Source: a virus (taxonomy: Duplodnaviria; Caudoviricetes). From it: DNA of 64,000 bases. Below, piece after piece: positions 17,541 through 40,212 of the stretch; the first letter of the stretch is position 1, and every line of letters starts with the position of its first letter. The notes below the pieces were generated by a model that saw only the letters and a list, made by a program, of their open reading frames with translations, did not search any database and had not been told where the DNA came from. Position numbers and translations under genes: made by a program. The stretch is taken from IMG/VR virus record IMGVR_UViG_3300027759_000044, one strand, 5' to 3'.

Positions 17541-17545
17541 CATTA

Positions 17546-17736: not shown

Positions 17737-17748
17737 TAGGTATACTTA

Positions 17749-18579
17749 ATGAGCCTTGCCAAATTAAATACCTTAATGTCTGATAACATAGATGATTTTA
17801 AAAAGTTTAGCATAGTTGCTACACGCAAAGATTTGTCTATTCAAACCGATATGAATGTACACTATTTTAGTCCATTAGACTATACACATAGAGAAACATG
17901 GAACTATGAAGATTTTAGTTACGATATATCTAAGTTAGGGTTTAGAGACAATTCAAATATTCCATCTGATATAGATATAGCTGCATTTGGTTGTAGTTTT
18001 ACTTTTGGTCAAGGTCTACCTAAAAATGTGTTATGGCATCATTTATTGGGAGATAGTTTACAACTATCTACGTATAACTTTGGGCAGCCTGCCGCAAGTG
18101 TAAAAACAGTATTAGATATATTTTCGTTAACGTGTAATCATACTAAAATAAAACATGCTATTTTTTTACTCCCACCATTTTTTAGATTACAGATAGCAAG
18201 CAAGCATAAGCATTCAGACAATGTTGAATTGATTCCTATAATACCTAATTATTCTAGTAATTTGGAAAATTCATATATGTTAGATGCGTCGGCAATTTAT
18301 AAATCATTGCCCAACGAAGAATTATGTAAAAATTTCAAAGATAATGTATATCTTATGGAATATATTGCTAAAAAAAATAATATTAAAATTTATTATTCTT
18401 CATGGGATAATTCAACGTATGAGATATTGCTTCAAATGAAATTTAAAAGTGCAATATTGTTACCAAGATGGATTGATTATACTACACCTGAGTTAAAAAG
18501 TTTGGCAAGAGATATGTTACATCCCGGACCGTCAAATCATTTGAAATGGGCTGAAGAAATTAAACCTTATATAATATAA
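17749..18579 (+). CDS. SGNH/GDSL-hydrolase-like protein
   Basis: AFGCSFTFG, NFGQPAAS, intact DxxH (RDMLHPG). Confidence 0.6.
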   Translation: MSLAKLNTLMSDNIDDFKKFSIVATRKDLSIQTDMNVHYFSPLDYTHRETWNYEDFSYDISKLGFRDNSNIPSDIDIAAFGCSFTFGQGLPKNVLWHHLLGDSLQLSTYNFGQPAASVKTVLDIFSLTCNHTKIKHAIFLLPPFFRLQIASKHKHSDNVELIPIIPNYSSNLENSYMLDASAIYKSLPNEELCKNFKDNVYLMEYIAKKNNIKIYYSSWDNSTYEILLQMKFKSAILLPRWIDYTTPELKSLARDMLHPGPSNHLKWAEEIKPYII

Positions 18580-20054
18580 TGAACTACATAGGTATTTCAT
18601 CTGGATTCCATGATGCAGCTGTTAGTGTTATAGATGATACTGGCAACATACTCTTTGCTGGGCACAGTGAACGATATAGTAAAAACAAACATGATAAAGA
18701 TATATGTGACGGATTATTAACCGACGCACTATCACATACCAATTATGTGAATTTACAATATCATTACTATGAACGCCCGTGGTTAAAGTCATTGCGTCAA
18801 TTACGTAGTGGAGAAGGTTTTGTTTGGCCAACATGGAATAATTTATTAGGTACTGTATACAATGACATGAGTAAACCTAACATACACACTCATAATCATC
18901 ACTTAAGTCACGCAGCCGCAGGGTTTCAAACAAGTATTTTTCAAGATGCCACTATTGTAGTAATTGATGCTATTGGTGAGTTTGATACTATCAGTATTTG
19001 GGATGCTAGATATATTAATGGAATAGCAAAGTATAAAAAACTATGGGGACAACGATATCCAGATAGTATTGGGTTGTTTTACTCAGCAATGACTAAACGA
19101 GCAGGTCTTAAACCATTAGATGAAGAATATATACTGATGGGTATGGCAGCATATGGTAACACTAGACCTTTGCGAGAAATGTCTAATACTTTAATAGAAT
19201 CTTTTAGCAACCTCACATTCAAACAAAACCTACATGTAGGTGTATCTGATGATTTTGCCAAAGGTGCGGACAATATGGACATTGCACATAGCGCACAATT
19301 GATAGTTGAACAAATGATAATGGCAGTTATTAGTAAAGCACGAATGCTAGGTGGTAGTAGGAACTTAGTGTATGGCGGAGGAGTAGCATTAAATTGTTTA
19401 GCAAATAGATTGTTAGGAGAATATTATGACAACATTTGGATTATTCCTAATCCTGGCGATGCTGGTTCTAGTCTTGGAGCCGCTGCTTTGGGCTACGGTA
19501 AACAGCTTAATTGGATTGATGCTTATCTTGGTCATAATATCCCTGGTGACTACCCTGTTAATAAGTTATTGGATCATCTTGTTACCACTGGCATTGTTGG
19601 TGTGGCTAGTGGTCGTGCTGAATTTGGACCTAGAGCCCTTGGACATAGAAGCTTACTTGCAGATCCAAGAGGATCAGCAATAAAAGATAAGGTAAATGAG
19701 ATTAAACGTAGACAAAAGTTTAGACCATTTGCTCCTATTATATTAGAAGAATATGCTGATACTTACTTTGATATGCCTAAAGGTTTTACTAACAGTCGAT
19801 ATATGCAAGTTATCAGTAGATGTAGAGTACCTGAATTATTCCCTGCTATTGTTCACCATGACAATACCAGCCGTGTTCAAACAGTACCAAAAGACGGGTC
19901 GGGTATTAGAGAACTATTAGAAAAGTGGTATGTGTTAACTGGATGTCCAATGTTGTTGAATACATCATTAAACATACGTGGTGAGCCGATGGTTAATGAT
20001 AGAGCAGATGCTGATAGATTTGAAAAACTTTATAATGTCCCTGTAATTTCATAA
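18579..20054 (+). CDS. carbamoyltransferase (NodU/CmcH family)
   Basis: GISSGFHDAA, HHLSHAA, VIDAIGE, EYILMGMAAYG, GGVALNC, EFGPRALG.RS, KRRQKFRPFAP, LLNTSLN. Confidence 0.92.
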   Translation: MNYIGISSGFHDAAVSVIDDTGNILFAGHSERYSKNKHDKDICDGLLTDALSHTNYVNLQYHYYERPWLKSLRQLRSGEGFVWPTWNNLLGTVYNDMSKPNIHTHNHHLSHAAAGFQTSIFQDATIVVIDAIGEFDTISIWDARYINGIAKYKKLWGQRYPDSIGLFYSAMTKRAGLKPLDEEYILMGMAAYGNTRPLREMSNTLIESFSNLTFKQNLHVGVSDDFAKGADNMDIAHSAQLIVEQMIMAVISKARMLGGSRNLVYGGGVALNCLANRLLGEYYDNIWIIPNPGDAGSSLGAAALGYGKQLNWIDAYLGHNIPGDYPVNKLLDHLVTTGIVGVASGRAEFGPRALGHRSLLADPRGSAIKDKVNEIKRRQKFRPFAPIILEEYADTYFDMPKGFTNSRYMQVISRCRVPELFPAIVHHDNTSRVQTVPKDGSGIRELLEKWYVLTGCPMLLNTSLNIRGEPMVNDRADADRFEKLYNVPVIS

Positions 20055-23000: not shown

Positions 23001-23812
23001 CTATTGAATCTAAGAATATATTGATTACGAATATGGGAGGCACACGTATTGTTGTACCCAAAGAAGCTAATAATTATGTTGAAAAGGAGTTGTATGATTA
23101 TCCATACATTTCCAAAGCAACAAAGATAGGACAGTCAACGCCACTGGATATAGTCTTCCTAAGTAACGGTGAAACCGGAGCTGACGAGAACTACGAACAC
23201 TTACTGAACGTGACTAAAGGACTGAAAAATCGTGTTGTTAGAGTCGACGGGGTCAATGGTCGTGTTGCTGCCTATCATGCAGCCGCAATTGCTAGTCAAA
23301 CATCTTGGATGTTTACGGTGTTTGCTAAATTAAAAGTTAATAGCAAGTTTGACTGGACATGGCAACCTGATAGATTACAAGTACCTAAACATTATATCTT
23401 CTATGCAAGTAACCCTGTTAATGGATTAGTATATGGTCACCAAGCTATGATTGCGTACAACAAACAGATTACATTAAGTAATATGGGCAAAGGATTAGAC
23501 TTTACATTAGATAGTGAGCATGAAGTTGTTGAGATTAATTCGGGTGTAGCACGTTACAATACAGATGAGTTTAGTACATGGCGCACTAGTTTCCGTGAAG
23601 CTATTAAGTTACGATTAGATGATAGTGCTATTAGTAGACACAGATTGAAAGTATGGACAACCGTTGGTGAAGGAGACTATGCCCAATATAGTACACAAGG
23701 TGCTCAACATGCTGTAGAATACTTTGAACAAGTCAATGGGGATTTAGACAAATTACGACTAAGTTATGATTGGCCTTGGTTGCAAGAGTATTTTAATACT
23801 AAATACAATTGA
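20063..23812 (+). CDS. 1249-aa protein of tandem FDFSWxPD...YIYQFG repeats with a C-terminal degenerate GT-A-like domain
   Basis: Seven well-conserved repeats plus about five diverged ones; C-terminal DIVFLSNGE...VDGVNG...NPVNGLVYG resembles 2749..3702. Confidence 0.7.
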   Translation: MLRDVFYYGNKPNVHPREKHAIDLVDARQQATTEHFWIINEYCDYTNFDWDWDFDFLPDEEVWTGEHNNVWPNKQNKDSGTWLCSTQYSDIIIYRADVEPVNRKNTKHNNWVILDKIDETKFDFSWEPNPYDPPYIYKWGCKFYPAEIKHYVEYHVEGATNIKYMPDVVELSPEWDKWKINYSIDKSSFDFSWRPDPREPAFIYMFGNTQYLAETMPTVEYHVSGATEQKFIDDLSMRAKILPNSTRFEHLENCDGIDYSWVPDPWSPPYIYAWGNQWNKPEDKISIQYVVEGATEYKYMEDRATRKPCMDNWEIPPYVIKNSFDFSWEPNPHDPPYIYQFGTVHQKTGGPRYTVPGATELKYIDTVKAEVVAWRFTNWLIPRNVDQASFDWSWHPDDTDPPYIYQFPSTWSKTGGPKFTVEGATETKYIDSLIAKVKQDMTHWSIPEGLDTSEFDFSWHPDVEDKPYIYQFGTQWQKTNGPVFTAPLCDETTPIKYIDIIKAKYLPNKTNWIIPAGFDETKFDFSWHPDATSPAYIYQFGTLLDDVHLEDGPKYVTPDNDGTIVLMENILLSDTVVQYPQYYIETTLEALIEQHIDEIFWALRKNINYTKFDFAWQPTKEQAFNINTFGSPDSELTQTYLVNGKMWQKGYRDISFIENTKLDEEYLSKLFKQVDAFFVDKGNKESATRFEQLKIHFPTLQKTRYLNSWVDTINRCINKSTTELCWILNSELDYTNFDFNYYPNPWQMTMVHVFGTQWSHWGSTFMVNKETFAEDTKYVKIIEHLTNLNFVKTKRAIASNCLYDVYLIDYGNDGVNDIVSLIESKIKRENVYTIKYETDYLTTLKNMLYELGIKKDHYIWVCSSICDYTNFDFTYICDPFSLEQLHVFPSDKQKFGDTFFINVNKLRILVEDLDKLENIEKINFNQHQKVKRLPAPSFVTDADTHLNFKKHSYNFPYAVFTTSDNLIAPDINDEPISMWSIESKNILITNMGGTRIVVPKEANNYVEKELYDYPYISKATKIGQSTPLDIVFLSNGETGADENYEHLLNVTKGLKNRVVRVDGVNGRVAAYHAAAIASQTSWMFTVFAKLKVNSKFDWTWQPDRLQVPKHYIFYASNPVNGLVYGHQAMIAYNKQITLSNMGKGLDFTLDSEHEVVEINSGVARYNTDEFSTWRTSFREAIKLRLDDSAISRHRLKVWTTVGEGDYAQYSTQGAQHAVEYFEQVNGDLDKLRLSYDWPWLQEYFNTKYN

Positions 23813-24087
23813 AGTTATTGCTGTATGAAGCGATGTAAAATAAGTTCAAGACGCCGGGGCAGTGCCGGCCATCTCCACCTAAGTGTATGAGGTATATTTA
23901 GGTGGGGATGACACAGGATCGATTGGGCAAAGAGTAACAAAGTGGACAGCTCGGCAAAGCAGAAGCCGTTAGGGTTGGGGGAACTCGGCCGTAGAAGCAA
24001 AAAAAGTAACCGCAAACGACTCACAGTTCGCATTGGCAGCTTGATAAAGGCTACCTAGGGTAAGACATACCTCGTAACAGAAACTCA
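23811..24087 (+). ncRNA. ssrA: circularly permuted (two-piece) tmRNA
   Basis: T-arm GCCGG-GGCAGTG-CCGGC (23853-23869) and acceptor 3' strand CATCTCC-A (23870-23877) lie upstream of the 5' strand GGGGATG (23904-23910); G3:U70 pair; tag ORF ANDSQFALAA then TGA TAA at 24012-24047. Outer ends are approximate. Confidence 0.9.
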
Positions 24088-24110
24088 GAAAAGGCTCTTC
24101 GGAGCCTTTC
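24088..24110 (+). terminator. intrinsic terminator after tmRNA
   Basis: AAAGGCTC-TTCG-GAGCCTTT hairpin. Confidence 0.75.
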
Positions 24111-24171
24111 CTATTTAATAAATATCATGATATTTCTCAACTAAAAAGCAAATAAATACTATCTCTAGAGG

Positions 24172-27684: not shown

Positions 27685-27719
27685 TTGTCACTAATTTGTC
27701 ACATATCTCTCAATAAATA
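27685..27719 (+). promoter_or_regulatory. Pho-box-like direct repeat plus TAAATA late element
   Basis: TTGTCAC-TAAT-TTGTCAC (27685-27702), 11-nt gap, TAAATA (27714-27719). Confidence 0.75.
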
Positions 27720-27723: not shown

Positions 27724-28566
27724 ATGAAAACATATCGTTCTATTTTTGTGAGTGATGTACATTTAGGTACCAAAGATAGTCAGGCTGATAAGTTAAATAA
27801 CTTTTTAAAACACAATACATGTGATACACTTTATCTAGTAGGTGATATTATTGATGCATGGCGTATACAGCAAAACAAGTGGCGCTGGAAACAAAGCCAT
27901 ACCAATGTAGTACGTAGAGTGTTAGGCCATGCTAAACGTGGTACTAGAGTTGTTTATATCGCTGGCAATCACGATGAGTTTTTAAGACCTATGATTCCAT
28001 ATGATTTTAGTTTTGGTCTTATAGAAATTCATAATCAAATAGAACATATAGGTATAGATGGAAAGCATTATCTAGTCACACACGGTGATTTATTTGATGG
28101 AATTACACGGCTAGCACCTTGGCTAGCATTTTTAGGAGACAAAGCATATGATTTCATTTTATCGCTCAATAGTAAGTTCAATTGGATACGTCATCGTTTT
28201 GGTTTTGGGTACTTTAGTCTTAGCAAATACCTTAAACACAAAGTAAAAAAAGCCATAGATTTTATGTTTCAGTTTGAAAAGAATCTAGCTGGGTATTGTA
28301 AGAAGCGAGGATTTGATGGTGTAATATGTGGTCATATACACCATGCTGAAATAAAAACTATAGATGGTGTCATTTACATGAATGATGGTGACTGGGTTGA
28401 ATCTTGTACAGCACTAGTAGAACATCATGATGGACGTTGGGAAATAGTTACTTGGACTAGGGAGAAGGACAATGTGGGTATTAATAATTCTAGCAGTTCA
28501 CATGAACGACCCAAAGGACATACCGGGACGAGTGGAGTTGACATTTCAGGACAAACTCTCATGTGA
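27724..28566 (+). CDS. PlcP/LpxH2-type metallophosphoesterase (putative phospholipase C)
   Basis: SDVHLG, LVGDIID, GNHD, THGD, DGVICGHIH, NDGDWVESCTAL motifs; likely start is ATG 27724, not TTG 27685. Confidence 0.8.
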   Translation: MKTYRSIFVSDVHLGTKDSQADKLNNFLKHNTCDTLYLVGDIIDAWRIQQNKWRWKQSHTNVVRRVLGHAKRGTRVVYIAGNHDEFLRPMIPYDFSFGLIEIHNQIEHIGIDGKHYLVTHGDLFDGITRLAPWLAFLGDKAYDFILSLNSKFNWIRHRFGFGYFSLSKYLKHKVKKAIDFMFQFEKNLAGYCKKRGFDGVICGHIHHAEIKTIDGVIYMNDGDWVESCTALVEHHDGRWEIVTWTREKDNVGINNSSSSHERPKGHTGTSGVDISGQTLM

Positions 28567-28642
28567 ACAAAGTTTACAAAGTATGACATATTGGCTAAAG
28601 TTTAGTCAATTTAAAATTGAAGGAAAGTGTATAAAAAAATGA
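28472..28642 (+). CDS. overlapping 56-aa protein (hydrophobic N-terminus, two Cys) missing from the ORF track
   Basis: GGAG/AAGGA SD, MWVLIILAVHMNDPKDIPGRVELTFQDKLSCEQ...GKCIKK; its TGA overlaps the ATG of GT2. Confidence 0.55.
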   Translation: MWVLIILAVHMNDPKDIPGRVELTFQDKLSCEQSLQSMTYWLKFSQFKIEGKCIKK

Positions 28643-29349
28643 AACTCAGTGATAAAATTACTATTGTTGTACCTTGTAAGAATGAAGAAAATTATATTCA
28701 TTATTTGTTAGATTCGTTGCGTAGTCAAGATATTGGTGATACTAGAGTTATCATTGCTGACTGTTCTACTGATAATACTAGACAAGTCATTAACGATAAC
28801 AGTGATTCATTGAATATTGAAATCATTGAGGGTGGTCCTGTTTCTATTGCTAAGAATAACGGAGCACGATTAGTTACTACTCCTTATATACTATTCATTG
28901 ATGCTGATGTTCGTTTCTTTAAAAATAATGTCATTTATGATGCTGTTAATAAAATTGACTCTATGAATTTGGATCTTGTTGGATTGAATATCAAATGTTA
29001 TGACAAAGACCCAAGAGCAATGCTCGGTTTCACTCTTTTTAATACAATAAACAACACATTGAAATATTTTTCACCCTTTGCAGTTGGAGCATTTATGCTA
29101 ACTCGTAAAGATAAGTTTATAGAATACGGTGGATTCCCCGAACAGTTCTCAACTTCCGAAGATTATTTTTTGTCAAGGAAATATAGCCCTAAAAAGTTCA
29201 GAATTGTTAAACATCACTTTGGTCAAGATAGTCGTAGATTTAAAAAGATGGGATATCTTGGTATGGGTAAATATTTAATAAAAAATTTTGTTAATCGCAA
29301 TAATAAAAAATACTGGGATAGTTTAGACTCATCTAAATATTGGTCGTGA
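28639..29349 (+). CDS. GT2 family glycosyltransferase
   Basis: ITIVVPCKNEE, IIADCST, NNGA, LFIDADV (DxD), GGFPE, EDY. Confidence 0.85.
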   Translation: MKLSDKITIVVPCKNEENYIHYLLDSLRSQDIGDTRVIIADCSTDNTRQVINDNSDSLNIEIIEGGPVSIAKNNGARLVTTPYILFIDADVRFFKNNVIYDAVNKIDSMNLDLVGLNIKCYDKDPRAMLGFTLFNTINNTLKYFSPFAVGAFMLTRKDKFIEYGGFPEQFSTSEDYFLSRKYSPKKFRIVKHHFGQDSRRFKKMGYLGMGKYLIKNFVNRNNKKYWDSLDSSKYWS

Positions 29350-29350: not shown

Positions 29351-29385
29351 TTGTAACATCACTGTCACACAATATCTATTAAATA
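29351..29385 (+). promoter_or_regulatory. Pho-box-like direct repeat plus TAAATA late element
   Basis: TTGTAAC-ATCA-CTGTCAC (29351-29368), 11-nt gap, TAAATA (29380-29385). Confidence 0.72.
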
Positions 29386-29432: not shown

Positions 29433-30080
29433 ATGAGATTAGAAGATTTAGCCGCAAGATTAGTAGCTGTAGAAGCCAAATTAGCAAACCTAACTGGTAC
29501 AACAGTTAATACAGACAGTGCCACAAGCATTGAAGAACTAGACGCAAGACTTTCTGTAGTTGAAGTTCAGGTTGACCAATTAATCATTGAGAAAACAGAA
29601 GCTCACATTGGCGCTATTGTTGCCGCAGTAGCAAATGACGCACCAGTTGACGTAGCAGAAGTAGTTGCATTGTCATCAAGCGTATTCCATGAAGAAGCCG
29701 CTAGCATCGTTACTGATGTTGTTACAGCACAAACTGAAGCTGATCCAATTGTTCATACTGAAGTTGCTGATATTGTTTCAGCCGCTGTCATGGCAGTTGT
29801 TACAGCAGATCCAGAAGTTGTTATTGATCCAGTCGCAATCACAGAAGCTATCATGCAAGCAGTTGCTGATATGCCAGCCCCGACTCCAGAAGTAGCTCAA
29901 CAAGTTGCTGATGCAGTTGCGGAAGTTATCGCTACAGCTACAGGTGTTGAAGCAGTTGCCCCAGAAGTAACACAACAAATTGTGGAAGCAATCGCTACTC
30001 CTGCAGATCCTGCATTAGATGCAATTGAAGCACGTTTGAATATTGCTGAAGCAAAAGTTGATTTCTTGTTGGGAAAGTAA
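29433..30080 (+). CDS. acidic Ala/Val-rich coiled-coil protein of unknown function
   Basis: AAGGAG SD; three (L/I)xARLxxxExx(L/V) motifs; no Cys, Trp or Tyr. Confidence 0.75.
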   Translation: MRLEDLAARLVAVEAKLANLTGTTVNTDSATSIEELDARLSVVEVQVDQLIIEKTEAHIGAIVAAVANDAPVDVAEVVALSSSVFHEEAASIVTDVVTAQTEADPIVHTEVADIVSAAVMAVVTADPEVVIDPVAITEAIMQAVADMPAPTPEVAQQVADAVAEVIATATGVEAVAPEVTQQIVEAIATPADPALDAIEARLNIAEAKVDFLLGK

Positions 30081-30162
30081 TAATTAGTATTAAACGTTGG
30101 TTTTTTACTCTTTTTAAATCGGACACAAAATAGCGTGTCGCTGGATTTGCGTAACCAGTACT

Positions 30163-30186
30163 AAGGGCCCTATAGGGCTCTTTTTT
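30163..30186 (+). terminator. intrinsic terminator
   Basis: AAGGGCCC-TATA-GGGCTCTT followed by a T run. Confidence 0.75.
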
Positions 30187-30195: not shown

Positions 30196-30230
30196 TAGTA
30201 AAACAATTGTCATATTGCCTAGCATAAATA
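30196..30230 (+). promoter_or_regulatory. degenerate Pho-box-like repeat plus TAAATA late element
   Basis: TAGTAAA-ACAA-TTGTCAT (30196-30213), 11-nt gap, TAAATA (30225-30230). Confidence 0.6.
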
Positions 30231-30237: not shown

Positions 30238-31056
30238 ATGAAAAAACTACTACTATTATTATTCGTACTGATTAGTTCAGTTGTCCACGCACAATTACCA
30301 ACTAGTACTGTACCACTACCCGCTGATATTGCCGCAATTAAGAAAGCAAATGTTCTTATTGTGGCAATGACCAAAAAAGATAACCCTCCCTTCTTCAGTG
30401 GTGGCGAGGATGATATCAAAGGTCTTGACGTTGAAATTGCACGAAGAATAGGCGTAATGCTTGGAGTTCCTGTAAAATTTAGACGAGATGCCGAAAGTTT
30501 TGCTGAGGTTGTTGAACAAGTACGAGACGGGCGAGCAGATGTTGCAGTAAGTAAATTATCTGTCACAGCCCCTAGACTACAGGTTGTTAGATTCAGTGAT
30601 CCATATATTAAACTAAGACAAAGTTTAGTTATCAATCGTTTATGGTTAAGTCAAAACAGTCAAGGTAAAGAAACATATCAAGTCATTAGAGATTTTAACG
30701 GTAAGATAAGTTTTATTCGTAACTCAAGCTATGATACATTTGCCCGTATTAATTTCCCTAATGCTGTATTTCTTCCAGAAGATAAGTGGGACGTAATTAT
30801 CGATAAAGTTACACGTGGTGATATCGCAGCCGCTTATCGTGATGAATTTGAGATTAAGAAAATTGCTTTTGAAAAGCCAGATGCGGCAATCACAACAAAA
30901 AGTATTACAATCTCTGATAGCGTGGATAATATTGCTGTAGCAGTCAATCCTAAATCACTACAATTGTTAAGCATTATTAATTACGTTATTAAAAATGAAT
31001 ACAACAACATTGACACTAAAAAGTTAATGGATCGCTACAAAGCTGAAAAGAAATAA
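30238..31056 (+). CDS. periplasmic amino-acid-binding protein (SBP family 3)
   Basis: Signal peptide, PPFF...GLDVEIA, GRADVAVS..S.T..R motifs. Confidence 0.85.
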   Translation: MKKLLLLLFVLISSVVHAQLPTSTVPLPADIAAIKKANVLIVAMTKKDNPPFFSGGEDDIKGLDVEIARRIGVMLGVPVKFRRDAESFAEVVEQVRDGRADVAVSKLSVTAPRLQVVRFSDPYIKLRQSLVINRLWLSQNSQGKETYQVIRDFNGKISFIRNSSYDTFARINFPNAVFLPEDKWDVIIDKVTRGDIAAAYRDEFEIKKIAFEKPDAAITTKSITISDSVDNIAVAVNPKSLQLLSIINYVIKNEYNNIDTKKLMDRYKAEKK

Positions 31057-31065
31057 GGACCTAGT

Positions 31066-32343
31066 ATGACAACCGCACATTTAAAATCGTTTTTAACAAG
31101 CCCGTGGACCATACTTGGTTCTATTATAGTGGGCGTACTGAGCGGCGTTTACGCACCTGAGTTCAGCATAAACTTTGACAGTATTGGTAGTATCTATATC
31201 AGCTTACTTAAAGTTGTTGTTCTTCCATTCTTATTAGCAACTATATTAGTTGGTATAATTGGCTTACTACAAAAAGAAGGTAGTCAACAACTAATTCGTA
31301 AAATCATTATTGGTTTTGTGTCTAGTATGTTCTTAGCCGCAATCATTGGTGTTGGTACAGTTCTTGTTACAGGAACTGAAATGACTCCTGAAAAGAAAAC
31401 ACAACTTGGTGTACTAGTTAATACTAAGGATAGTGGAACTGATTTGAACATCACTCTTAAAGAACCAATGCCTATAGCACCAGAAGTTAGTGCTGGTAAA
31501 ATGGCAGAGAAGTTTATTCCAGAGAATATTTTTAATACACTAAACAATGGTGAAAGTTTGAAGATTGTTATATTCTGTTTAATCTTTGGTGTTGCCCTTG
31601 GTCATCTACAAACTGAAGGTCAAAAGATGTTGGTTGAAGTACTTAAAAGCATTCAACAAGCAAGTATCAGCATCTTTAAGTTCTTAAACTACTTCTTACC
31701 AATAGCATTGTTAGCAATGATTGCCGCTCAAGTTGGTAAAGTAGGTGTAGGTATATTCTTAACTATGTTTGACTTTGTGTTCCAGCAATTCATTGGTGGA
31801 CTATTAGTAGTTGCCGCAGGTACTGCTATGATTTGGTGGAGGTCTGGATTAAGTCTCTCCACTGTTATCAAAGAAACTAAAGAAACATTGATTGTTGCTG
31901 TTAGTTCACGTAGCTCTTTAGCTTGCATCCCATACGCACAAGAAGCATTACATAAACTACACTTTGACAAAGGTGGAGTTGAATTAACAGTTCCGTTAAG
32001 CTTTACAGTTAATCGTATTGGTAGTATTGTTTATTATGCTATTGCTACAGTATTCATTGCTAACATTTATGATGCACCACTAGGCTTAACAGGACTAGCA
32101 GTTGTATTGTTTGGTAGTATCTTAGCAGGACTAGCAAGTGCAGGTACAACAGGTATCCTTACAGTCGCTACAGTGGCAGTTGTGTGTGATTTGTTGAAAT
32201 TACCAAGCGAAGCTGTATTAGTATTACTAATCGCAGTTGATCCATTAATGGATATGATTCGCACAGCAAGTCATGTACACGGCAATGTAGCAGTAACAGC
32301 ATTTGTCTGCGACAAAGAGGTAGTTACTGGTGGACAAACTTAA
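31066..32343 (+). CDS. dicarboxylate/amino acid:cation symporter (DAACS, GltP-like)
   Basis: Multi-TM protein; LLKVVVLP, FIPENIF, SSRSS serine motif, PLSFTVN, IAVDPLMDMIRT. Confidence 0.88.
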   Translation: MTTAHLKSFLTSPWTILGSIIVGVLSGVYAPEFSINFDSIGSIYISLLKVVVLPFLLATILVGIIGLLQKEGSQQLIRKIIIGFVSSMFLAAIIGVGTVLVTGTEMTPEKKTQLGVLVNTKDSGTDLNITLKEPMPIAPEVSAGKMAEKFIPENIFNTLNNGESLKIVIFCLIFGVALGHLQTEGQKMLVEVLKSIQQASISIFKFLNYFLPIALLAMIAAQVGKVGVGIFLTMFDFVFQQFIGGLLVVAAGTAMIWWRSGLSLSTVIKETKETLIVAVSSRSSLACIPYAQEALHKLHFDKGGVELTVPLSFTVNRIGSIVYYAIATVFIANIYDAPLGLTGLAVVLFGSILAGLASAGTTGILTVATVAVVCDLLKLPSEAVLVLLIAVDPLMDMIRTASHVHGNVAVTAFVCDKEVVTGGQT

Positions 32344-32932
32344 AGATTTTCTCTTTAGTTTATTAACCTATATAGGCGAAAGTCCATTTCGCCTATTTAC
32401 CGTTGTCTTTCTCTGTATACTAGGATTTGCTGGTTGGATTGTTTATACAGAAAAAGACAACTTCTTGGCAACATATCGTGCCCAACAAGCATTGCCTAAG
32501 ATGAATGGAAGATATGAAGAAGCATATAATTTCTTATTAAAAAATACAGAAATAGAGCTTGTATCTATTATGGAAGTTAACACTTTAATAAACACAAGAA
32601 AAATTGTATTTGTGTCCACACGCAATGGTGGAAGAATTAAACAATACGATGGATTAGATGTTGGATTGTTTAGTAAAAACTATGATAACAATAATGATGT
32701 TATTGGTTTAATGTCTGGTAAGATACCATGTAGTCCATATCTTAAGCCACAAAGTCTTATTGGATTTGCGTATAGAGAAAATGGTGTTAACTATATGTGT
32801 AGAATTAGTGTACCAGCAGAGCCTGGCGTATTCATTGGACAAATTAGTGTAGGTTGGAAAGAACAACCCACTGATGTTGAAGCCGCACAAACCGCATTAG
32901 TTATTGCTTCTGCCTTGTTATTTAAAAAATGA
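32330..32932 (+). CDS. T4 gpT-like holin candidate (N-terminal TM plus GAF-like periplasmic domain)
   Basis: TM then WIVYTEKDNFLATY and VNYMCRISVPAEPGVFIGQISVGW, resembling recalled T4 T segments IVWYRGDSFFEYY and INYMYSCPYFNLDNIYAGTITMYW. Confidence 0.45.
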   Translation: MDKLKDFLFSLLTYIGESPFRLFTVVFLCILGFAGWIVYTEKDNFLATYRAQQALPKMNGRYEEAYNFLLKNTEIELVSIMEVNTLINTRKIVFVSTRNGGRIKQYDGLDVGLFSKNYDNNNDVIGLMSGKIPCSPYLKPQSLIGFAYRENGVNYMCRISVPAEPGVFIGQISVGWKEQPTDVEAAQTALVIASALLFKK

Positions 32933-32997
32933 GACTTCCTGCTGTCATCGCTATTGGTATTGGTATTTTTATAATCATAATATTGGTTATGGTATGA
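32929..32997 (+). CDS. 22-aa hydrophobic peptide coupled to both neighbours
   Basis: MRLPAVIAIGIGIFIIIILVMV; ATGA overlaps at both ends. Confidence 0.5.
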   Translation: MRLPAVIAIGIGIFIIIILVMV

Positions 32998-33686
32998 TTA
33001 AACGATTAGGAGTATTAGGTGGCATGGGCCCTGCCGCAAGTGCTGAATTTATAAGCAGACTAATACAACAAACTCCTGCAACGTGTGACCAAGAACATAT
33101 TCCATTTGTATTATGGAATGAGCCACGAACACCTGATCGTAGTACAAGTATGCGAGCCGGCAATGATGATCCTTTACCGTACTTGAAAGAAGGCATTCTA
33201 TCATTAAAAGCTGTAGGATGTGATTATATTGTCATACCTTGCAACTCAGCACATTACTGGTATACTGAATTAAATGAATTAGGTGTACCAATAATTCATA
33301 TTGTTAGTAGTGTAATTACAGAGTTAGACAGTTTAGCTATTCCAAATCAAACTATTGGTGTAATAGGAACACAAGGTACAATAGAGTACGGAATATATCA
33401 ACAACATTTAATAAAGCAAGGTTGGAAATGTATTGTACCAGACACAGCAGAGATGGATTACTTTGTTCAGCCTGCAATTGATTTTATTAAAGCTGGTAAT
33501 ATGGTGGAAGCAAATTCTTTGTTAGTCAAGGTTATTGACAGTTTAATTTCTCGTGGGGCAAAAGCTGTAGTATTAGGTTGTACAGAATTGCCATTAGCTG
33601 TTAGAGAATTAGAGCTAAACGGCATTCCTTTAGTTAATAGCATAGATAGTTTGGTTAAAAGAGCTATATTTCATGCCAACATGTGA
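32994..33686 (+). CDS. aspartate/glutamate racemase (PLP-independent)
   Basis: LGVLGGMGP, catalytic PCNSAH and LGCTELP; likely start is ATG 32994. Confidence 0.88.
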   Translation: MIKRLGVLGGMGPAASAEFISRLIQQTPATCDQEHIPFVLWNEPRTPDRSTSMRAGNDDPLPYLKEGILSLKAVGCDYIVIPCNSAHYWYTELNELGVPIIHIVSSVITELDSLAIPNQTIGVIGTQGTIEYGIYQQHLIKQGWKCIVPDTAEMDYFVQPAIDFIKAGNMVEANSLLVKVIDSLISRGAKAVVLGCTELPLAVRELELNGIPLVNSIDSLVKRAIFHANM

Positions 33687-34823: not shown

Positions 34824-35708
34824 ATGAAGAAAATCGCAATAGCGACATTATTGGCCGCAACAACACTAGTTGCAACTGCTCAAGTATCAGTCTCTGGTAA
34901 AATCAGCGAATTTGCTGACAATACTAAAACAGGTGCAACAAGCAAAACAACTCTTGTTACAGATCCAACAAGCAACTTCACATTTTCAGCAAATGAAAAT
35001 ATTGGTGGTGGTTTGAAGGCTCGTGTAGTATTAGATACAAGTTTGGCAGCTAATGATCCAACAGGTGGCTCTGCAACTAAGTTAGGTGATCGTCAATCAA
35101 CAGTCGGTTTAGCTAACAGACTAGGCAGTGTTGACCTAGGTCGCAACTTACATAGTCACTTCTTAGCAGTTACTAACAATGATGCCTTTGGTACATTGTA
35201 TGGTAGTATTGCCGGTGATGTACATAACTTGCGTGGTCTAAGAATGAGCAATGGTACATTCTTTGCATTGACACCAATCAAAGGTGTAACTGCAACCTAT
35301 GACCGCACAAATAATGGTGTAGGTACTGAAGCAACTAGCTATAGTGCATCAGCAACTGTTATGGGTGTTAATGCTGTAGTTGCCCAATATAGTCAAGGTA
35401 CTGAAAAAAGTACTGTATATGGTGGTAGCGCAAAATTAGGCGGTACTCAAGTATTTTACACACATAGTGATGACAAAGGTGTAGGCGCACATAAGGGTGA
35501 TTTGATTGGCGCAAGTCAAGCATTTGGTCCAGTAACTGCTAAAGCAAGTTTTGGTAAAACAAATACCAATGTTAAAGCTTATTCAATGGGTGCTGATTAT
35601 AACTTCAGTAAGCGTACTGCTCTTGGTGTCAACTATCGTAGTGTTGATGCTACAGGTACAGCAAATGACGTAAAACAAGTTGGAGTTGGTGTAACACATC
35701 GCTTCTAA
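34824..35708 (+). CDS. Gram-negative general diffusion porin (betaproteobacterial type)
   Basis: Signal peptide, ENIGGGLKA, DRQSTVGL...LGSVDLGR, GADYNFSKRT, C-terminal GVTHRF. Confidence 0.85.
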   Translation: MKKIAIATLLAATTLVATAQVSVSGKISEFADNTKTGATSKTTLVTDPTSNFTFSANENIGGGLKARVVLDTSLAANDPTGGSATKLGDRQSTVGLANRLGSVDLGRNLHSHFLAVTNNDAFGTLYGSIAGDVHNLRGLRMSNGTFFALTPIKGVTATYDRTNNGVGTEATSYSASATVMGVNAVVAQYSQGTEKSTVYGGSAKLGGTQVFYTHSDDKGVGAHKGDLIGASQAFGPVTAKASFGKTNTNVKAYSMGADYNFSKRTALGVNYRSVDATGTANDVKQVGVGVTHRF

Positions 35709-36001: not shown

Positions 36002-36034
36002 TTGATAAATATAATATAACGTAGGAATAATAAA

Positions 36035-37531
36035 ATGGCATTACCAGGCATACAAATAGGTCCAGGCATTGATATAGGAGCTGGTATTTTAATACAACAA
36101 GCTCCTAGTGGTAGTTCTCCGGTTAATACCGTAGCACCGGTTGTAAGTGGTACACCAAATTTTGGTCAAACACTATCAACTACTAATGGCACTTGGACTG
36201 GCACAGCTACAATAACTTTCACATATCAATGGCAACGAAATGGTACTAATATAGGAAGTGCAACGTCTAGTAGCTATACTTTAGTAGCCGCAGATGTAGG
36301 TAATCCAATCAGATGCGTAGTAACTGGTACTAACGGCATTGGTAATTCATCTGCTAATTCTAATGCCACAGCTAATGTATCAGCTATAGCCCCAGATGCG
36401 CCAACTATAGGTACAGCTACAGCTACAGGGTCAACCACAGCAACAGTAGCATATACAGCTCCGGCAAGTAATGGTGGTGCCACTATTACAACATATACAG
36501 CAACAAGTAGTCCAGGTAGCATCACTGGTACATTAAGCCAAGCAGGTAGTGGAACCATCACTGTTTCTGGATTAACAGCAAGCACAAGTTATACATTTAC
36601 AGTTACTGCTACAAATAGTATTGGTACAAGTAGCCCAAGTGCTGCAAGTAATAGTATTACAACATCAGCACCGGCAGCCCCATCAACAGTTGATTACCTT
36701 GTAGTTGCAGGCGGCGGTGGAGGTAACACTAATGATGGTGGTGGTGGTGGCGCCGGTGGATTTAGATATGGTACTTCTTTCTCTATTGGATCTTCATTTA
36801 CTGTAACAGTTGGCGGTGGTGGCGCGGCTCAAACAGGACAAGCAAGTTATGGTAATGCTGGGTCAAATTCAGTATTTTCAAGTATTACGTCAGCCGGCGG
36901 CGGTGCTGGCGGTTCTGGTCAAGGCGGTGGAAATTGGAAAAACGGTGGTGATGGCGGCTCTGGTGGCGGAGGCGGAAACGGTGGCGGAGATAGTTCCGTA
37001 GGAGGCGCCGGCAATACACCAAGCACAAGCCCATCTCAAGGTTTTGGCGGCGGTGCTGGAAGTGGTACTGGTCCAGCTTATCCTGGTGGCGGAGGTGGAG
37101 GAGCTAGTGCGGTTGGGGGTAATGGTCAAGCTCCAAATGGCCCCGGAGGTTCTGGTGGTGCAGGTTCTGTTAACCCAATTACAGGATCAACAACAGGTCA
37201 ATTAAGTGGCGGTAATTACTATTTAGCCGGCGGTGGCGGTGGCGGTGTTGATAATGGCGCGACTCCAGCGGCCGGCGGACTTGGAGGAGGCGGTACAGGA
37301 GGAAATAATGGTACTGCTGCCACAAATGGAACTGCCAATACTGGCGGTGGCGCCGGATCATCAGGTAGATCCACTACAGGTAGTGGTGGCTCTGGTGTTG
37401 TTATTATTGCCTATCCATCTTCATATGCTGACCTTACAACAATTGGTGGTGGTCTAACTTATGCTAAAACAACATCAGGTGGAAACACTATATATACATT
37501 TACAGCTGGAACAGGAACAGTTACGGTGTAA
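36035..37531 (+). CDS. Gly-rich fibre/adhesin: Ig-like + FN3 + polyglycine domain
   Basis: PVNTVAPVVSG Ig module, PDAPTIG...YTFTVTATN FN3, DYLVVAGGGG and GGGG motifs. Confidence 0.75.
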   Translation: MALPGIQIGPGIDIGAGILIQQAPSGSSPVNTVAPVVSGTPNFGQTLSTTNGTWTGTATITFTYQWQRNGTNIGSATSSSYTLVAADVGNPIRCVVTGTNGIGNSSANSNATANVSAIAPDAPTIGTATATGSTTATVAYTAPASNGGATITTYTATSSPGSITGTLSQAGSGTITVSGLTASTSYTFTVTATNSIGTSSPSAASNSITTSAPAAPSTVDYLVVAGGGGGNTNDGGGGGAGGFRYGTSFSIGSSFTVTVGGGGAAQTGQASYGNAGSNSVFSSITSAGGGAGGSGQGGGNWKNGGDGGSGGGGGNGGGDSSVGGAGNTPSTSPSQGFGGGAGSGTGPAYPGGGGGGASAVGGNGQAPNGPGGSGGAGSVNPITGSTTGQLSGGNYYLAGGGGGGVDNGATPAAGGLGGGGTGGNNGTAATNGTANTGGGAGSSGRSTTGSGGSGVVIIAYPSSYADLTTIGGGLTYAKTTSGGNTIYTFTAGTGTVTV

Positions 37532-37687
37532 TTAAAGTCGGCATAAATAATATTAATATATATTGGAAATAATAATATGGCAGTGACAATAGGCGGAAAC
37601 ATAACAATAGGTGGTGGTATTACTCTAATACCAGAATCAAGCACAAGTCCCCCAGTTAATACCGTAGCACCGGTTGTAAGTGGTACA
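36122..37687 (+). repeat. 33-bp identical direct repeat at the start of Ig modules of fibre paralogues
   Basis: GTTAATACCGTAGCACCGGTTGTAAGTGGTACA at 36122-36154 and 37655-37687. Confidence 0.8.
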
Positions 37688-38965
37688 GCTAATTTTGGTC
37701 AAACACTATCAACTACTGATGGTACTTGGACTGGCACAGCTACAATAACATTTACATATCAATGGCAACGCAATGGAGTTAATATAGGAAGTGCTACTGC
37801 TAGCACATATACATTAGTAGCTGCAGATGTGGGTAATCCAATTAGATGTGTAGTAACTGGTACAAATGGTATTGGTAACTCATCTGCTAATTCTAATGCT
37901 ACATCTAATGTATCAGCAATTTCACCAGGAGCTCCTACAATAGGTACAGCCACAGCTACAGGTGCTACTACTGCAACTGTATCATATACCGCTCCAGCAA
38001 GTAATGGCGGTGCTACTATTACAACATACACAGCAACAAGCAGTCCTGGTGGCATCACCGGTACATTAAGCCAAGCAGGTAGTGGTACTATTAATGTTAC
38101 TGGATTAACAGCTGGTACAAGTTACACATTTACTGTTACTGCTACTAACAGTGTTGGTACTGGTTCAGCTAGTGCATCAAGTAATAGCATTACGACAGAT
38201 GCCGCATTTAGTTATCTTGTTGTTGCGGGCGGCGGTGGAGGATCCGGTGGCGGTGGTGGTGCAGGTGGTATGCTAACTGGTACAGCTACATTCTCTGGTT
38301 CCTATACAGTCACCGTGGGCGCAGGCGGTAGTGCTGGCACGCAAACTAGCGGAAATGCTTCTCCTGGAACTAATTCAATTATAACTGGGTATACCGCAGT
38401 TGGCGGTGGATATGGTGCTGGAGCTTATGCAGTAGTTAACGGTGGTTCTGGTGGCTCTGGTGGCGGTGGTTCAATTGGTTCTTTTATTATAGGAGTAGGA
38501 GCAGGAGGTACTGCAACAGCAGGACAAGGTTATGCAGGCGGATCAGGCACTGCAACAACTACCGCATATGGCTGGCTTTCTGGTGGCGGTGGTGGTGCTG
38601 GCGGGGTAGGTGCTAGTACCCAAGATATTGATACTGGTGCTGTAGGAGGTGGTGCGGGTGGTGCCGGCTTAGCATCATCTATTACAGGATCTTCTGTTAC
38701 CTATGCTGCTGGAGGTAAAGGCTATTGGTCTACCGGTGTCACCGGAGATGCCACAGCAAATTCAGGAAACGGCGGAGGTGGTTCAAGAACTTTTCAGGCG
38801 GCAAGTGCTGGATGGAACGGAGGCTCTGGTGTAGTAATTATTGCTTACCCAGATAGTTATCCAGCTATCTCCTCAATTGGAGGTGGTTTAACATACACCC
38901 AACCATCTAGAGCTGGTTACCGAGTGTATAGATTTACTGCTGGTACAGGAACTATTACTTTCTAA
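37577..38965 (+). CDS. Gly-rich fibre/adhesin paralogue (Ig + FN3 + polyglycine)
   Basis: Same architecture; ATAAATA at 37543-37549. Confidence 0.75.
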   Translation: MAVTIGGNITIGGGITLIPESSTSPPVNTVAPVVSGTANFGQTLSTTDGTWTGTATITFTYQWQRNGVNIGSATASTYTLVAADVGNPIRCVVTGTNGIGNSSANSNATSNVSAISPGAPTIGTATATGATTATVSYTAPASNGGATITTYTATSSPGGITGTLSQAGSGTINVTGLTAGTSYTFTVTATNSVGTGSASASSNSITTDAAFSYLVVAGGGGGSGGGGGAGGMLTGTATFSGSYTVTVGAGGSAGTQTSGNASPGTNSIITGYTAVGGGYGAGAYAVVNGGSGGSGGGGSIGSFIIGVGAGGTATAGQGYAGGSGTATTTAYGWLSGGGGGAGGVGASTQDIDTGAVGGGAGGAGLASSITGSSVTYAAGGKGYWSTGVTGDATANSGNGGGGSRTFQAASAGWNGGSGVVIIAYPDSYPAISSIGGGLTYTQPSRAGYRVYRFTAGTGTITF

Positions 38966-39003
38966 AGTTAACATAAATATAAATATATAATAGGAATAAT
39001 AGC

Positions 39004-40212
39004 ATGGCATTACAAATAGGTGGAAATATTGTTATTGGTGGTAATATCACACTTCAAATAGAGTCTGGTGTTACGGTGCCAGGTGCTCCTACAATAGGTA
39101 CAGCTACAGCTACAGGTGCATCAACAGCCACAGTAGCATTTACTGCTCCAGCAAGTAATGGTAATGCCACGATTACAACGTATACAGCGACAAGTAGTCC
39201 TGGCGGTATCACTGGTACACTAAGTCAAGCAGGTAGTGGTACTATTAATGTTACTGGATTAAGTCCAAGTACAAGTTATACATTTACTGTAACTGCTACT
39301 AATAGTGTTGGTACAGGTAGTCCAAGTTCGGCAAGCAATAGCATAACTACTGCAGCATTAAGTGCTTCAATTCAATATTTAGTAGTTGCAGGAGGCGGTG
39401 GATCAGCCGGCAGTGGTAGTGTCAATCCAGGTGGCGGCGGAGCCGGCGGATTTAGATCATCTACTCTTTCGGCATCTTTAAGCACAAATTACACAGTAAC
39501 CGTAGGTGGCGGAGGAGCCGGAGTACCTAATAATAGTCAGAGTGATGGATCACCTGGTTCTAACTCAGTATTCAGCTCTATAACTTCTGCAGGTGGAGGT
39601 GGTGCTAATGGATTTAACACTGCTACCGGCGGTAGCGGTGGTTCTGGCTCCGGCGGTTTTGGCTCTGGAGGTGGCGGTTCAACTAAAGGTTTTGGTAATA
39701 CTCCAAGCACAAGTCCTTCACAAGGTAATGACGGTGGTAATGGGGGCGGTTCTCCATACTATGGAGGTGGAGGTGGAGGTGCAGGAGGTGCAGGCTCTAA
39801 TGGCGGATCAAGCGTAGGAAATGGTGGTATTGGAGCAGCCAATCCAATTGCAGGATCAACGACAGGTGAATTCTCTGGTGGACAATATTACCTAGCTGGT
39901 GGTGGCGGTTCTGGTAGTAATGGACCAACTGCATCAGCCGGTGGTCTTGGTGGTGGTGGGTACGGTAGTAATGGATCAGCAGTTGCGGCTGCAGGAGCAA
40001 CTAACACCGGAGGTGGCGGGGGCGGAGGTACTAATGTCGGAAGTCCTTATGATCAAGGTAAAGCCGGCGGATCAGGTGTTGTTGTACTTAAATATCCAGA
40101 TACTTATACAATTACAGTTGGCGGCGGGCTAACAAGCTCAACATCTTCACCATCAGGTGGATACAAAATAACAACATTTACTGCCGGAACAGGCAACGTA
40201 CAATGGAATTAA
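39004..40212 (+). CDS. Gly-rich fibre/adhesin paralogue (FN3 + polyglycine, no Ig module)
   Basis: FN3 module directly after the N-terminal IG repeat; TATAAATA at 38978-38985. Confidence 0.75.
   Translation: MALQIGGNIVIGGNITLQIESGVTVPGAPTIGTATATGASTATVAFTAPASNGNATITTYTATSSPGGITGTLSQAGSGTINVTGLSPSTSYTFTVTATNSVGTGSPSSASNSITTAALSASIQYLVVAGGGGSAGSGSVNPGGGGAGGFRSSTLSASLSTNYTVTVGGGGAGVPNNSQSDGSPGSNSVFSSITSAGGGGANGFNTATGGSGGSGSGGFGSGGGGSTKGFGNTPSTSPSQGNDGGNGGGSPYYGGGGGGAGGAGSNGGSSVGNGGIGAANPIAGSTTGEFSGGQYYLAGGGGSGSNGPTASAGGLGGGGYGSNGSAVAAAGATNTGGGGGGGTNVGSPYDQGKAGGSGVVVLKYPDTYTITVGGGLTSSTSSPSGGYKITTFTAGTGNVQWN

Follow-up and report, generated by a model that had tools for sequence, protein, structure and literature searches.

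A PlcP-type phosphoesterase and a small glycosyltransferase form a probable membrane-lipid remodelling cassette in a freshwater jumbo phage

Why does a phage carry, behind a repeat that resembles a Pho box, a gene of the kind that annotation pipelines name lpxH, followed by a gene for a small glycosyltransferase? The question is raised by a freshwater jumbo phage of ~349 kb, of which we analysed a stretch of 64,000 nucleotides (the window; IMG/VR record IMGVR_UViG_3300027759_000044). The two genes, one for an LpxH-fold metallophosphoesterase and the other for a 236-aa family-2 glycosyltransferase (GT2), lie on the same strand 72 nt apart (Table 1). On balance, the pair is probably an auxiliary metabolic cassette with which the phage would remodel membrane lipids.

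Table 1 Features of the cassette and its downstream neighbours in the window
Feature	Position	Strand	Remarks
Pho-box-like direct repeat TTGTCAC-TAAT-TTGTCAC	27685..27702	+	11-nt period; degenerate third repeat CTCTCAA after
TAAATA promoter element	27714..27719	+	11 nt past box, 4 nt ahead of ATG
PlcP-type metallophosphoesterase, predicted phospholipase C	27724..28566	+	280 aa
GT-A fold family-2 glycosyltransferase, predicted diacylglycerol glycosyltransferase	28639..29349	+	236 aa
Second unit: TTGTAAC-ATCA-CTGTCAC, 11 nt, TAAATA	29351..29385	+	ahead of ORF 29433-30080
Ala/Val/Glu-rich protein	29433..30080	+	215 aa; behind second box; no family match
Third unit: half-site TTGTCAT, 11 nt, TAAATA	30207..30230	+	ahead of binding-protein/symporter genes
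SBP_bac_3 binding protein	30238..31056	+	behind third box
DAACS/GltP-DctA-like symporter	31066..32343	+	behind third box

The phage origin of the window is evident from the large terminase, the gp32-like SSB and the UvsX that it encodes. Relatives were found on IMG/VR contigs of 330-525 kb, and a megablast search with 24 kb of the window gave no match among GenBank phages. Of 400 genomes searched for a host by way of the phage porin, 2 gave a match, at just 29-31% identity; a beta-type tmRNA is present, which is a hint only of a betaproteobacterial host. Downstream of the cassette, the gene for the 215-aa protein adjoins the cassette in several relatives as well, and a structured element at 30118-30185 matched no Rfam family.

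The preliminary description had proposed that the two genes are co-transcribed, and the layout agrees with this: an intergenic scan found no terminator-like site in the short gap between them, and in some phage relatives the GT2 gene begins right at the stop codon of the phosphoesterase gene or overlaps it, which fits co-transcription of both genes. Short contigs over both genes are present in lake RNA libraries, where they possibly reflect DNA carry-over and where start, strand and induction are not readable from the contigs.

Homologues of the phosphoesterase are not confined to this lineage. The gene was found in at least 596 IMG/VR stretches and in thousands of metagenomic protein clusters at >80% identity. 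Pelagibacter phage Mosig encodes a homologue with 49% identity, divergent from an adjoining pstS, and Synechococcus phage S-SRM01 encodes another, both of them labelled LpxH. The system had been put forward as possibly new to phages; a literature search found no paper describing a phage PlcP, but homologues of the gene were already present in isolated phages under the name LpxH.

The direct repeat and hexamer upstream of the cassette

A classical Pho box has two 7-bp direct repeats, set apart by a 4-bp spacer and placed ~10 bp ahead of a hexamer that resembles a -10. When the region upstream of the phosphoesterase gene was compared with this layout, taking the repeats to be of CTGTCAT type and no -35 to be present, we found 7-bp repeats, a 4-bp spacer, a distance of 11 nt and the hexamer TAAATA, as far as a test of sequence only can tell. 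No other site in the window fits TGTCAYNNNNYTGTCA without a mismatch, and the repeat sits just upstream of the cassette, as expected from the earlier claim that the best Pho box heads these genes. Allowing up to one mismatch to TGTCAYNNNNYTGTCA, the window contains 8 matches versus 1.9 expected, a number reached in 0 of 100 shuffles. The combination of box, 11 nt and TAAATA appears as three consecutive units in the window, versus 0.18 expected, and as only two copies in the whole 348.7-kb genome of a relative. Of 80 relatives, 47 have homologous repeats upstream of the gene, both halves reading TGTCAY or TGTAAY, and the spacing between box and TAAATA was 11 nt in all 63 occurrences among relatives. 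That the upstream repeat has the sequence and geometry of a Pho box, and that it is conserved, is well supported by computation.

The hexamer also stands ahead of further genes of the window, among them the terminase and fibre-like genes and others that look late, and by this distribution TAAATA is a general late-type element of the phage. PhoB acts through sigma-70, so that co-operation between PhoB and a phage late factor at such an element stays hypothetical. As TAAATA lies just 4 nt ahead of the ATG, transcription from it would imply a leaderless or near-leaderless mRNA.

It might be that both enzymes act on lipids as we propose while the repeat binds a phage activator or another OmpR-family regulator in place of PhoB, in which case the phage programme, and not phosphate status, would time the cassette. 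Such an arrangement would go with the fixed 11 nt to a phage TAAATA, a geometry typical of activator-dependent phage promoters (the T4 MotA box lies ~12 nt upstream of the -10), and with the variation seen among relatives, many of which have TGTAAT or TGTAAC in both halves in place of TGTCA, while in some the box is missing and a structured leader is found in its place. The strict form TGTCA-N6-TGTCA is rare among bacterial homologues, too, being found within 250 nt upstream in just 2 of 80, a count that is uninformative for the phage. We nevertheless consider a regulator other than PhoB unlikely, since two or three sites per 349-kb genome are too few for a general temporal class, the Mosig homologue is paired with pstS, and the repeat and hexamer together have the classical Pho-box layout; Pho boxes are described at plcP clusters (PMC4796936).

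The phosphoesterase and its relatives

The open reading frame at 27724-28566, whose product begins with MKTYRSIFVSDVHLGT, contains both motifs noted in the preliminary description, GNHD at residues 81-84 and NDGDWVESCTAL at residues 220-231. The metal ligands D11, H13, D41, N82, H83, H120, H204 and H206 are all invariant in a family alignment of 38 sequences. In the predicted structure, an LpxH-like core carries a helical cap formed by residues 122-194, and the closest solved fold is LpxH with bound lipid X (TM 0.5-0.6).

Although the phage protein thus shares with LpxH the fold, the helical lipid-binding cap and also the name assigned by annotation pipelines, it is only 17-20% identical to LpxH and scored 45.6 and 33.6 bits against the two NCBIfam LpxH equivalogs, far under their cut-offs of 134 bits (NF003743) and 190.35 bits (TIGR01854). 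The true LpxH in each of five proteobacterial genomes scored 213-332 bits, and in four of the five a second match at 38-55 bits proved to be a close relative of the phage protein. Motif III reads GNRD in all five true LpxH proteins but GNHD in the phage protein; GNHD is present in 19 of 19 phage and 78 of 78 bacterial PlcP-like proteins, and NxGDW in 19 of 19 and 77 of 78, respectively.

We built a tree of 102 proteins that included true LpxH from the same genomes as the bacterial homologues. LpxH was split from the PlcP-like family with 100% SH-aLRT, on a long branch. The phage clade (99% support) is nested within the family, with Mosig and two marine bacteria as its sister and a Pseudomonas clade adjacent, and the phage protein groups among bacterial homologues that adjoin agt or diacylglycerol (DAG) kinase genes. 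True LpxH is ruled out by the cut-offs, the GNHD motif and the tree together, and the earlier proposal of a PlcP-like enzyme rather than an E. coli-type LpxH is borne out on each of these points. A PlcP-type identity for the phosphoesterase is well supported by computation, as an assignment based on synteny, on motifs and on a phylogenetic place among homologues that are themselves uncharacterised; the nearest proxies to a characterised PlcP are Pseudomonas-genus homologues (L125 and L141), at 52-55% identity.

PlcP-Agt lipid remodelling is known from Sinorhizobium (SMc00171), SAR11 HTCC7211 (PB7211_983/960), Phaeobacter MED193, Pseudomonas aeruginosa and Methylosinus OB3b. For the scan of bacterial genomes, an alignment of 9 sequences served as the query, the 38-sequence alignment being too diverse. 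The bacterial relatives that it found are 48-59% identical to the phage phosphoesterase, and among 40 downstream ORFs on the same strand that were scanned, 21 encode a GT4 and 2 a diacylglycerol kinase, neighbours that match the plcP-agt arrangement published for bacteria (PMC4796936, PMC9239053).

The glycosyltransferase slot

The GT2 reading frame could start at 28627 (GTG) or 28639 (ATG) and ends at 29349; 28639 is the likely start because relatives begin at the ATG (MKLSDKITIVVPCKNEE). The protein scored 75.9 bits against Pfam Glycos_transf_2, has no transmembrane helix and ends in a basic, aromatic C-terminus, and 17 phage copies all have its motifs DCSTD, IDADV, TSEDYF and GQDSRRF without change. 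With its GT-A fold it is unrelated to the GT4 Agt, which has a GT-B fold with Glyco_transf_4 and Glycos_transf_1 domains. Its structural matches are generic GT-A enzymes (TM 0.55-0.70), and the closest of them, CrtQ, ceramide glucosyltransferase and a PGL glycosyltransferase, have lipid acceptors.

A plcP gene beside a glycosyltransferase other than Agt has parallels in bacteria: Sebastian et al. 2016 described plcP context types 3 and 5 with such enzymes, one of them being the processive Pgt (GT21) found in Mesorhizobium loti. In both settings plcP lies directly upstream of a gene for a GT-A type glycolipid glycosyltransferase, this function being a prediction for the phage. In addition to its fold match with ceramide glucosyltransferase, the phage GT2 scored 22.7 bits against Pfam Glyco_transf_21 (PF13506), just over the cut-off of 21.7. 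Set against the D/D/D/QxxRW-type motifs and the membrane anchoring expected of GT21/Pgt-type enzymes, it has DCSTD, IDADV, SED and QDSRRF but no membrane-spanning segment, and it is shorter than Pgt. A tblastn search with the phage GT2 found no homologue beside plcP at 80 bacterial loci.

The partner gene alternates among the phages themselves. The GT2 follows the phosphoesterase gene in 62 of 80 related phage contigs, and an Agt-like GT4 follows it in all 15 that were scanned of the 16 others, the GT4 of a sister phage being 43% identical to a bacterial Agt-like neighbour. No GT4 was found in a near-identical complete genome of the GT2 type, nor any close GT2 on the GT4-type contigs. Whatever the flanking genes, each of the 77 relatives that had downstream DNA and were checked has a glycosyltransferase gene following that of the phosphoesterase. 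The alternation implies that the GT2 occupies the slot of the canonical plcP-agt operon, and a functional coupling of the predicted phosphoesterase to the glycosyltransferase is well supported by computation. Like the bacterial operon, the phage cassette has a GNHD LpxH-fold enzyme with a same-strand glycosyltransferase downstream of it and a Pho-box-like repeat in front, and sister phages have the canonical GT4 Agt-type partner; the phage version differs in being encoded by a lytic-type jumbo phage, in having in the window a 236-aa GT2 and not a GT4, in the fusion of its box to a phage TAAATA element, and in forming a distinct phage clade with ~50% identity to bacterial members.

Seroconverting phages use GtrB-type GT2 enzymes, and the cassette could in principle modify the envelope, altering a glycoconjugate at the cell surface, be it LPS core, a precursor of lipid A, capsule or a polyprenyl-linked sugar, for instance to block superinfection or change a receptor, with no bearing on phosphorus economy. 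GT2 enzymes mostly build cell-surface polysaccharides, the NCBIfam and fold matches include TuaG, EpsD, PgaC, WbbD-like and AglE/AglJ proteins, the source database labels the GT2 a 'glycosyltransferase involved in cell wall biosynthesis', the window encodes other envelope proteins besides the porin, and lists of virus-borne auxiliary metabolic genes (AMGs) put 'lpxH' under LPS biosynthesis (PMC9611531, PMC10653327). However, the phosphoesterase departs from LpxH in score and in motif and groups with agt-linked PlcP homologues, the GT2 slot is taken in sister phages by the Agt-like GT4 that resembles a bacterial plcP neighbour, the membrane helices found at the C-terminus of GtrB-type enzymes are missing from the GT2, and the cassette contains no flippase or other LPS genes. 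Envelope modification is therefore improbable in our judgement. It is very improbable that the phosphoesterase works alone, in degrading lipid, in helping lysis or on a non-lipid phosphodiester, while the glycosyltransferase modifies something unrelated, for instance phage DNA or protein: although the enzyme scored just 44.2 bits against Pfam Metallophos, calcineurin-like phosphoesterases have many different substrates, the Mosig and S-SRM01 enzymes have no adjacent glycosyltransferase, and glycosyltransferases that modify DNA or protein are common in large phages, the phage protein has the family-specific motifs of agt-linked bacterial proteins in addition to its identity with them, its cap lies where LpxH binds lipid, a glycosyltransferase gene follows in all the relatives checked with downstream sequence, and two unrelated glycosyltransferase folds alternating in one slot are difficult to account for unless they share a link by substrate.

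A proposed route from membrane phospholipid to phage phosphate

Under the lipid-remodelling reading, the most likely role of the cassette would be to replace, in the course of infection, the phospholipids of the host membrane with glycolipids that contain no phosphorus. The predicted Mn-dependent PlcP would cleave host glycerophospholipids (PE, PG) to diacylglycerol and a phospho-headgroup, which host phosphatases may convert to phosphate. The GT2, a presumed membrane-peripheral enzyme that would take the part played in the bacterial plcP-agt operon by the GT4 Agt, would glycosylate the diacylglycerol to a phosphorus-free glycolipid, and the membrane would remain intact until lysis. Transcription would start at a composite promoter in which a PhoB-type direct repeat lies 11 nt upstream of the phage TAAATA, and with such a repeat expression would rise in a phosphate-starved host. 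Each copy of a 349-kb genome contains, by arithmetic, ~0.7 million phosphorus atoms, which would make membrane phospholipid a worthwhile reserve. More tentatively, freshwater jumbo phages of an abundant lineage might sense host phosphate status through a composite PhoB-box/late-type promoter and, under starvation, turn membrane phospholipid into phosphate usable by the phage; the bilayer would be rebuilt with glycolipid from a small GT2 that would be a diacylglycerol glycosyltransferase not recognised before and would have displaced the canonical Agt.

Phage pstS, phoA and phoH are textbook cases of viral steering of host metabolism. The cassette resembles these Pho-regulon genes of marine phages (cyanophages and pelagiphages) as a set of phage-borne phosphate-stress genes behind Pho-box-like sites, and the two meet in Mosig, where the PlcP homologue is paired with pstS, and in the near-identical genome G006, which contains phoH and in which no pstS was found. 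The difference is that the cassette would target the membrane lipid pool and not phosphate uptake, and membrane lipids have so far been outside the picture of phage phosphate-stress genes. If the proposal is true, the phospholipid pool would be an added phosphorus source open to viruses, and infection would be linked to the non-phosphorus lipid signatures that serve in lakes and oceans as markers of limitation by phosphorus. Many of the 'lpxH' genes of viruses, which AMG surveys place under LPS biosynthesis, would then be lipid-remodelling genes, and a systematic annotation error would be corrected. The alternation of GT2 and GT4 may serve as a natural experiment toward a new family of diacylglycerol glycosyltransferases, and the box with its TAAATA promoter may offer a compact model of a phage transcription programme coupled to a host two-component system.

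Affiliation of the phosphoesterase

Although annotation pipelines name the product of ORF 27724-28566 and its relatives LpxH, this calcineurin-type phosphoesterase scored only 45.6 and 33.6 bits against the two NCBIfam LpxH equivalog models (cut-offs 134 and 190.35) and ~26 bits at most against solved LpxH sequences. An exhaustive profile-free search returned 903 cluster representatives at E < 1e-30 with 40-55% identity to it, and judged by sequence these homologues are a large family apart from LpxH, with the consensus FISDxHLGT, LVGDIID, GNHDEF, CGHIH and YxNxGDWVESCTALVE. The nearest relatives in species genomes are found in Alpha-, Beta- and Gammaproteobacteria (48-59% identity). Each of five such genomes also has a true LpxH (213-332 bits), and four of the five show a second, sub-threshold match (38-55 bits), namely the gene related to the phage protein. 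A maximum-likelihood tree built from 102 proteins sets LpxH apart on a very long branch (support 100%) and unites the 18 jumbo-phage proteins in a single clade (99%) nested within the non-LpxH family, sister to phage Mosig and two marine bacteria and adjoining a Pseudomonas clade. GNHD is present in every phage member and in all 78 bacterial members, and NxGDW in every phage and 77 of the 78 bacterial members, whereas five of five true LpxH proteins have GNRD. The low scores, the motif and the separate branch speak against LpxH, in agreement with the preliminary description, which had read a metallophosphoesterase with GNHD and NDGDWVESCTAL here and had argued from GNHD against LpxH.

A plcP gene typically precedes one whose product uses diacylglycerol, in most cases agt, which encodes a GT4 glycosyltransferase (PMC4796936, PMC9239053). 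We made the PlcP assignment by this published signature, the gene neighbourhood, in uncharacterised homologues. Directly downstream of the bacterial homologues, on the same strand, we found GT4 genes in 21 of 40 cases and diacylglycerol kinase in 2 of 40, and the agt-linked members are dispersed over the tree, surrounding the phage clade. These computational and indirect lines agree with one another in placing the protein in the PlcP branch, not LpxH, and we predict it to be a phospholipase C. An AlphaFold model (pLDDT 85) has a phosphoesterase core with a three-helix insertion (residues 122-194), and among solved structures LpxH-lipid X complexes match it best; by the order of structural elements, without residue-level superposition, the insertion would take the position of the LpxH lipid-binding cap.

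Two isolated phages, Mosig and S-SRM01, carry homologues annotated as LpxH-type enzymes. That of Pelagibacter phage Mosig (L001; MT647606.1 93031-94866; 49% identical) is called a putative UDP-2,3-diacylglucosamine hydrolase, probably wrongly in the same way as the cassette's LpxH label. Here ATAAATA stands 6 nt ahead of the start codon (ATG), and the gene is divergent from a pstS-like phosphate-binding gene, which supports a link to phosphate. In a full-text literature search for PlcP with phage or auxiliary metabolic genes, phage PlcP was not described; viral 'lpxH' in tables of such genes is filed under LPS biosynthesis.

Features of the window
Feature	Position	Strand	Details
Permuted two-piece tmRNA gene	23778-24113	+	Rfam tmRNA_permuted 104 bits, beta_tmRNA 98.6 bits, both above gathering scores
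Pho-box-like repeat	27685-27702	+	TTGTCAC-TAAT-TTGTCAC, directly upstream of phosphoesterase
TAAATA element	27714-27719	+	11 nt after repeat, 4 nt before ATG
Phosphoesterase ORF	27724-28566	+	280 aa; N-terminus MKTYRSIFVSDVHLGT; GNHD and NDGDWVESCTAL
GT2 glycosyltransferase	28639-29349	+	start most likely ATG 28639, after 72-nt spacer
Second unit (repeat, 11 nt, TAAATA)	29351-29385	+	ahead of ORF 29433-30080
Two-hairpin element	30118-30185	+	conserved; GGACAC..GTGTC, GCTGG..CCAGT, then intrinsic terminator; -23.4 kcal/mol, z -2.8
Third unit	30207-30230	+	weaker first half-site; ahead of binding-protein/symporter pair
Gram-negative porin	34824-35708	+	phage-encoded; Pfam Porin_4, 78.9 bits
Large terminase	55418-56965
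gp32-type SSB	61183-62187
UvsX	62668-63735

Glycosyltransferases behind the phosphoesterase

The claimed GT2 gene was found behind a spacer with no terminator-like site. It follows the phosphoesterase in 62 of 80 related phage loci, in some of which its start abuts or overlaps the phosphoesterase stop, and the flanking genes vary. Two of the remaining 18 loci stop at the contig edge, and 16 hold a ~335-aa gene in the slot, ~75 nt downstream. A scan of 15 of these 16 (L046, laid out as L045, was left out) detected a GT4 enzyme in all 15, as the slot gene or, in L010 and L066, as the second gene downstream. The extra gene in these two loci (L010:4901-5551, L066:4901-5791) encodes in one case a RimK-like ATP-grasp protein. 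One sister-phage GT4 shares 43% identity along its entire length with an Agt-like gene beside a bacterial plcP homologue. No such GT4 was found in the complete GT2-type genome, and no close GT2 in five GT4-type contigs that are just 10-50% complete. On the phosphoesterase tree, GT2-type and GT4-type loci intermingle: L031 (GT4) has L027 (GT2) as its sister. Thus, two unrelated glycosyltransferase folds (GT-A for GT2, GT-B for GT4) alternate behind one enzyme, the GT4 being of the canonical Agt type. Most simply, both would use the phosphoesterase's product, diacylglycerol. This evidence, computational and indirect but mutually consistent, ties the phosphoesterase functionally to a glycosyltransferase.

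The GT2 protein is strongly conserved, with invariant DCSTD, IDADV, TSEDYF and GQDSRRF, lacks a membrane-spanning helix and ends in a basic, aromatic helix. It scores barely above the Pfam GT21 cut-off; its best fold matches are the lipid-glycosylating enzymes CrtQ, ceramide glucosyltransferase and a phenolic-glycolipid GT, and generic polysaccharide GT2 enzymes are likewise among the matches. These properties fit a lipid acceptor without proving one, and diacylglycerol is the acceptor we would predict. Bacterial plcP genes with non-Agt glycosyltransferases are known (types 3 and 5; PMC4796936). The cassette differs from the bacterial plcP-agt operon in its glycosyltransferase and in its hybrid promoter.

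Promoter units and conserved hairpins

The Pho box ahead of the cassette, described as the best one, is the window's sole exact match to the core pattern (near matches, 8 against 1.9 expected). All three elements, the phosphoesterase, the GT2 and the Pho box, are therefore real. PhoB-dependent promoters have two 7-bp repeats with a 4-bp spacer, ~10 bp before a -10-like hexamer. The repeat has the same geometry in its sequence and may place the cassette under the control of PhoB, which would then work together with a phage late factor; a phage activator acting there, rather than host PhoB, is a live alternative. Pho boxes have been reported at plcP clusters (PMC4796936).

The window has three copies of the combination of half-site, 11 nt and TAAATA, consecutive and all on the + strand, against 0.18 expected; the whole 348.7-kb relative has only two. 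All 63 occurrences in relatives keep the 11-nt spacing, and the box core alternates between TGTCA and TGTAA, usually with both halves alike. TAAATA alone is found ahead of the terminase gene, of fibre-like genes and of others that look late, in many cases with only 4-8 nt left to the start codon, and is thus the phage's general late-type element; so short a distance to the ATG suggests late promoters of a T4-like class, whose mRNAs would have a very short leader or none. Such sites, often ATAAATA, lie for example at 55406-55411 (terminase), 56977-56982, 50934-50939, 36006-36011, 37544-37549 and 38974-38985.

The two-hairpin element matched no Rfam family. In six relatives (L004, L010, L016, L027, L030 and L072) a homologous leader just upstream of the phosphoesterase start replaces the Pho-box promoter, and the element may be a small RNA or act as a cis-regulator. 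Behind the third box, a host-like transport and metabolism set (30238-33686, +) comprises a family-3 solute-binding protein, a DAACS (GltP/DctA-like) symporter, a 200-aa family-less protein and a racemase (216.5 bits; NCBIfam cysteate racemase (CuyB) cut-off 190).

The phage and its cassette

Nearly all genes of the window are on the + strand, GC is ~35%, and a baseplate-like protein and thymidylate synthase are also encoded. The GT2 protein is letter-identical on a 348,724-bp contig, and a 348,701-bp IMG/VR genome, 100% complete by CheckV, has cassette proteins 96% and 89% identical. The stretch's DNA was detected in freshwater and lake metagenomes of 15 studies. This gene content, the ~348.7-kb relatives and the metagenome matches identify the source as a jumbo phage of fresh water whose replication and packaging genes are T4-like. 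The beta-type tmRNA may hint at a betaproteobacterial host, and together with the porin, for which 400 genomes from the class of a Limnohabitans MAG (G003) yielded at best 29-31% identity, it points loosely to a proteobacterial one.

The window also encodes a series of five or more radical-SAM proteins (3704-13861, +) with family-less proteins between them, one member having a B12-binding and one a SPASM domain, followed by C-methyltransferase, epimerase and carbamoyltransferase genes (15446-20054). Four paralogous, fibre-like fn3 and glycine-rich-domain proteins occupy a GC-rich island (36035-42059, +; 44-48% vs ~35% elsewhere).

Three lake-water/sediment RNA libraries yielded short contigs that cover the two cassette genes, phosphoesterase and GT2, as well as ORF 29433-30080, some identical to the window; being without starts or strand, and with DNA carry-over possible, they weakly suggest that the cassette is expressed in lakes. 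The computational and indirect but mutually consistent evidence argues that with this cassette phages have taken over a bacterial lipid-remodelling operon, from which they would presumably benefit.
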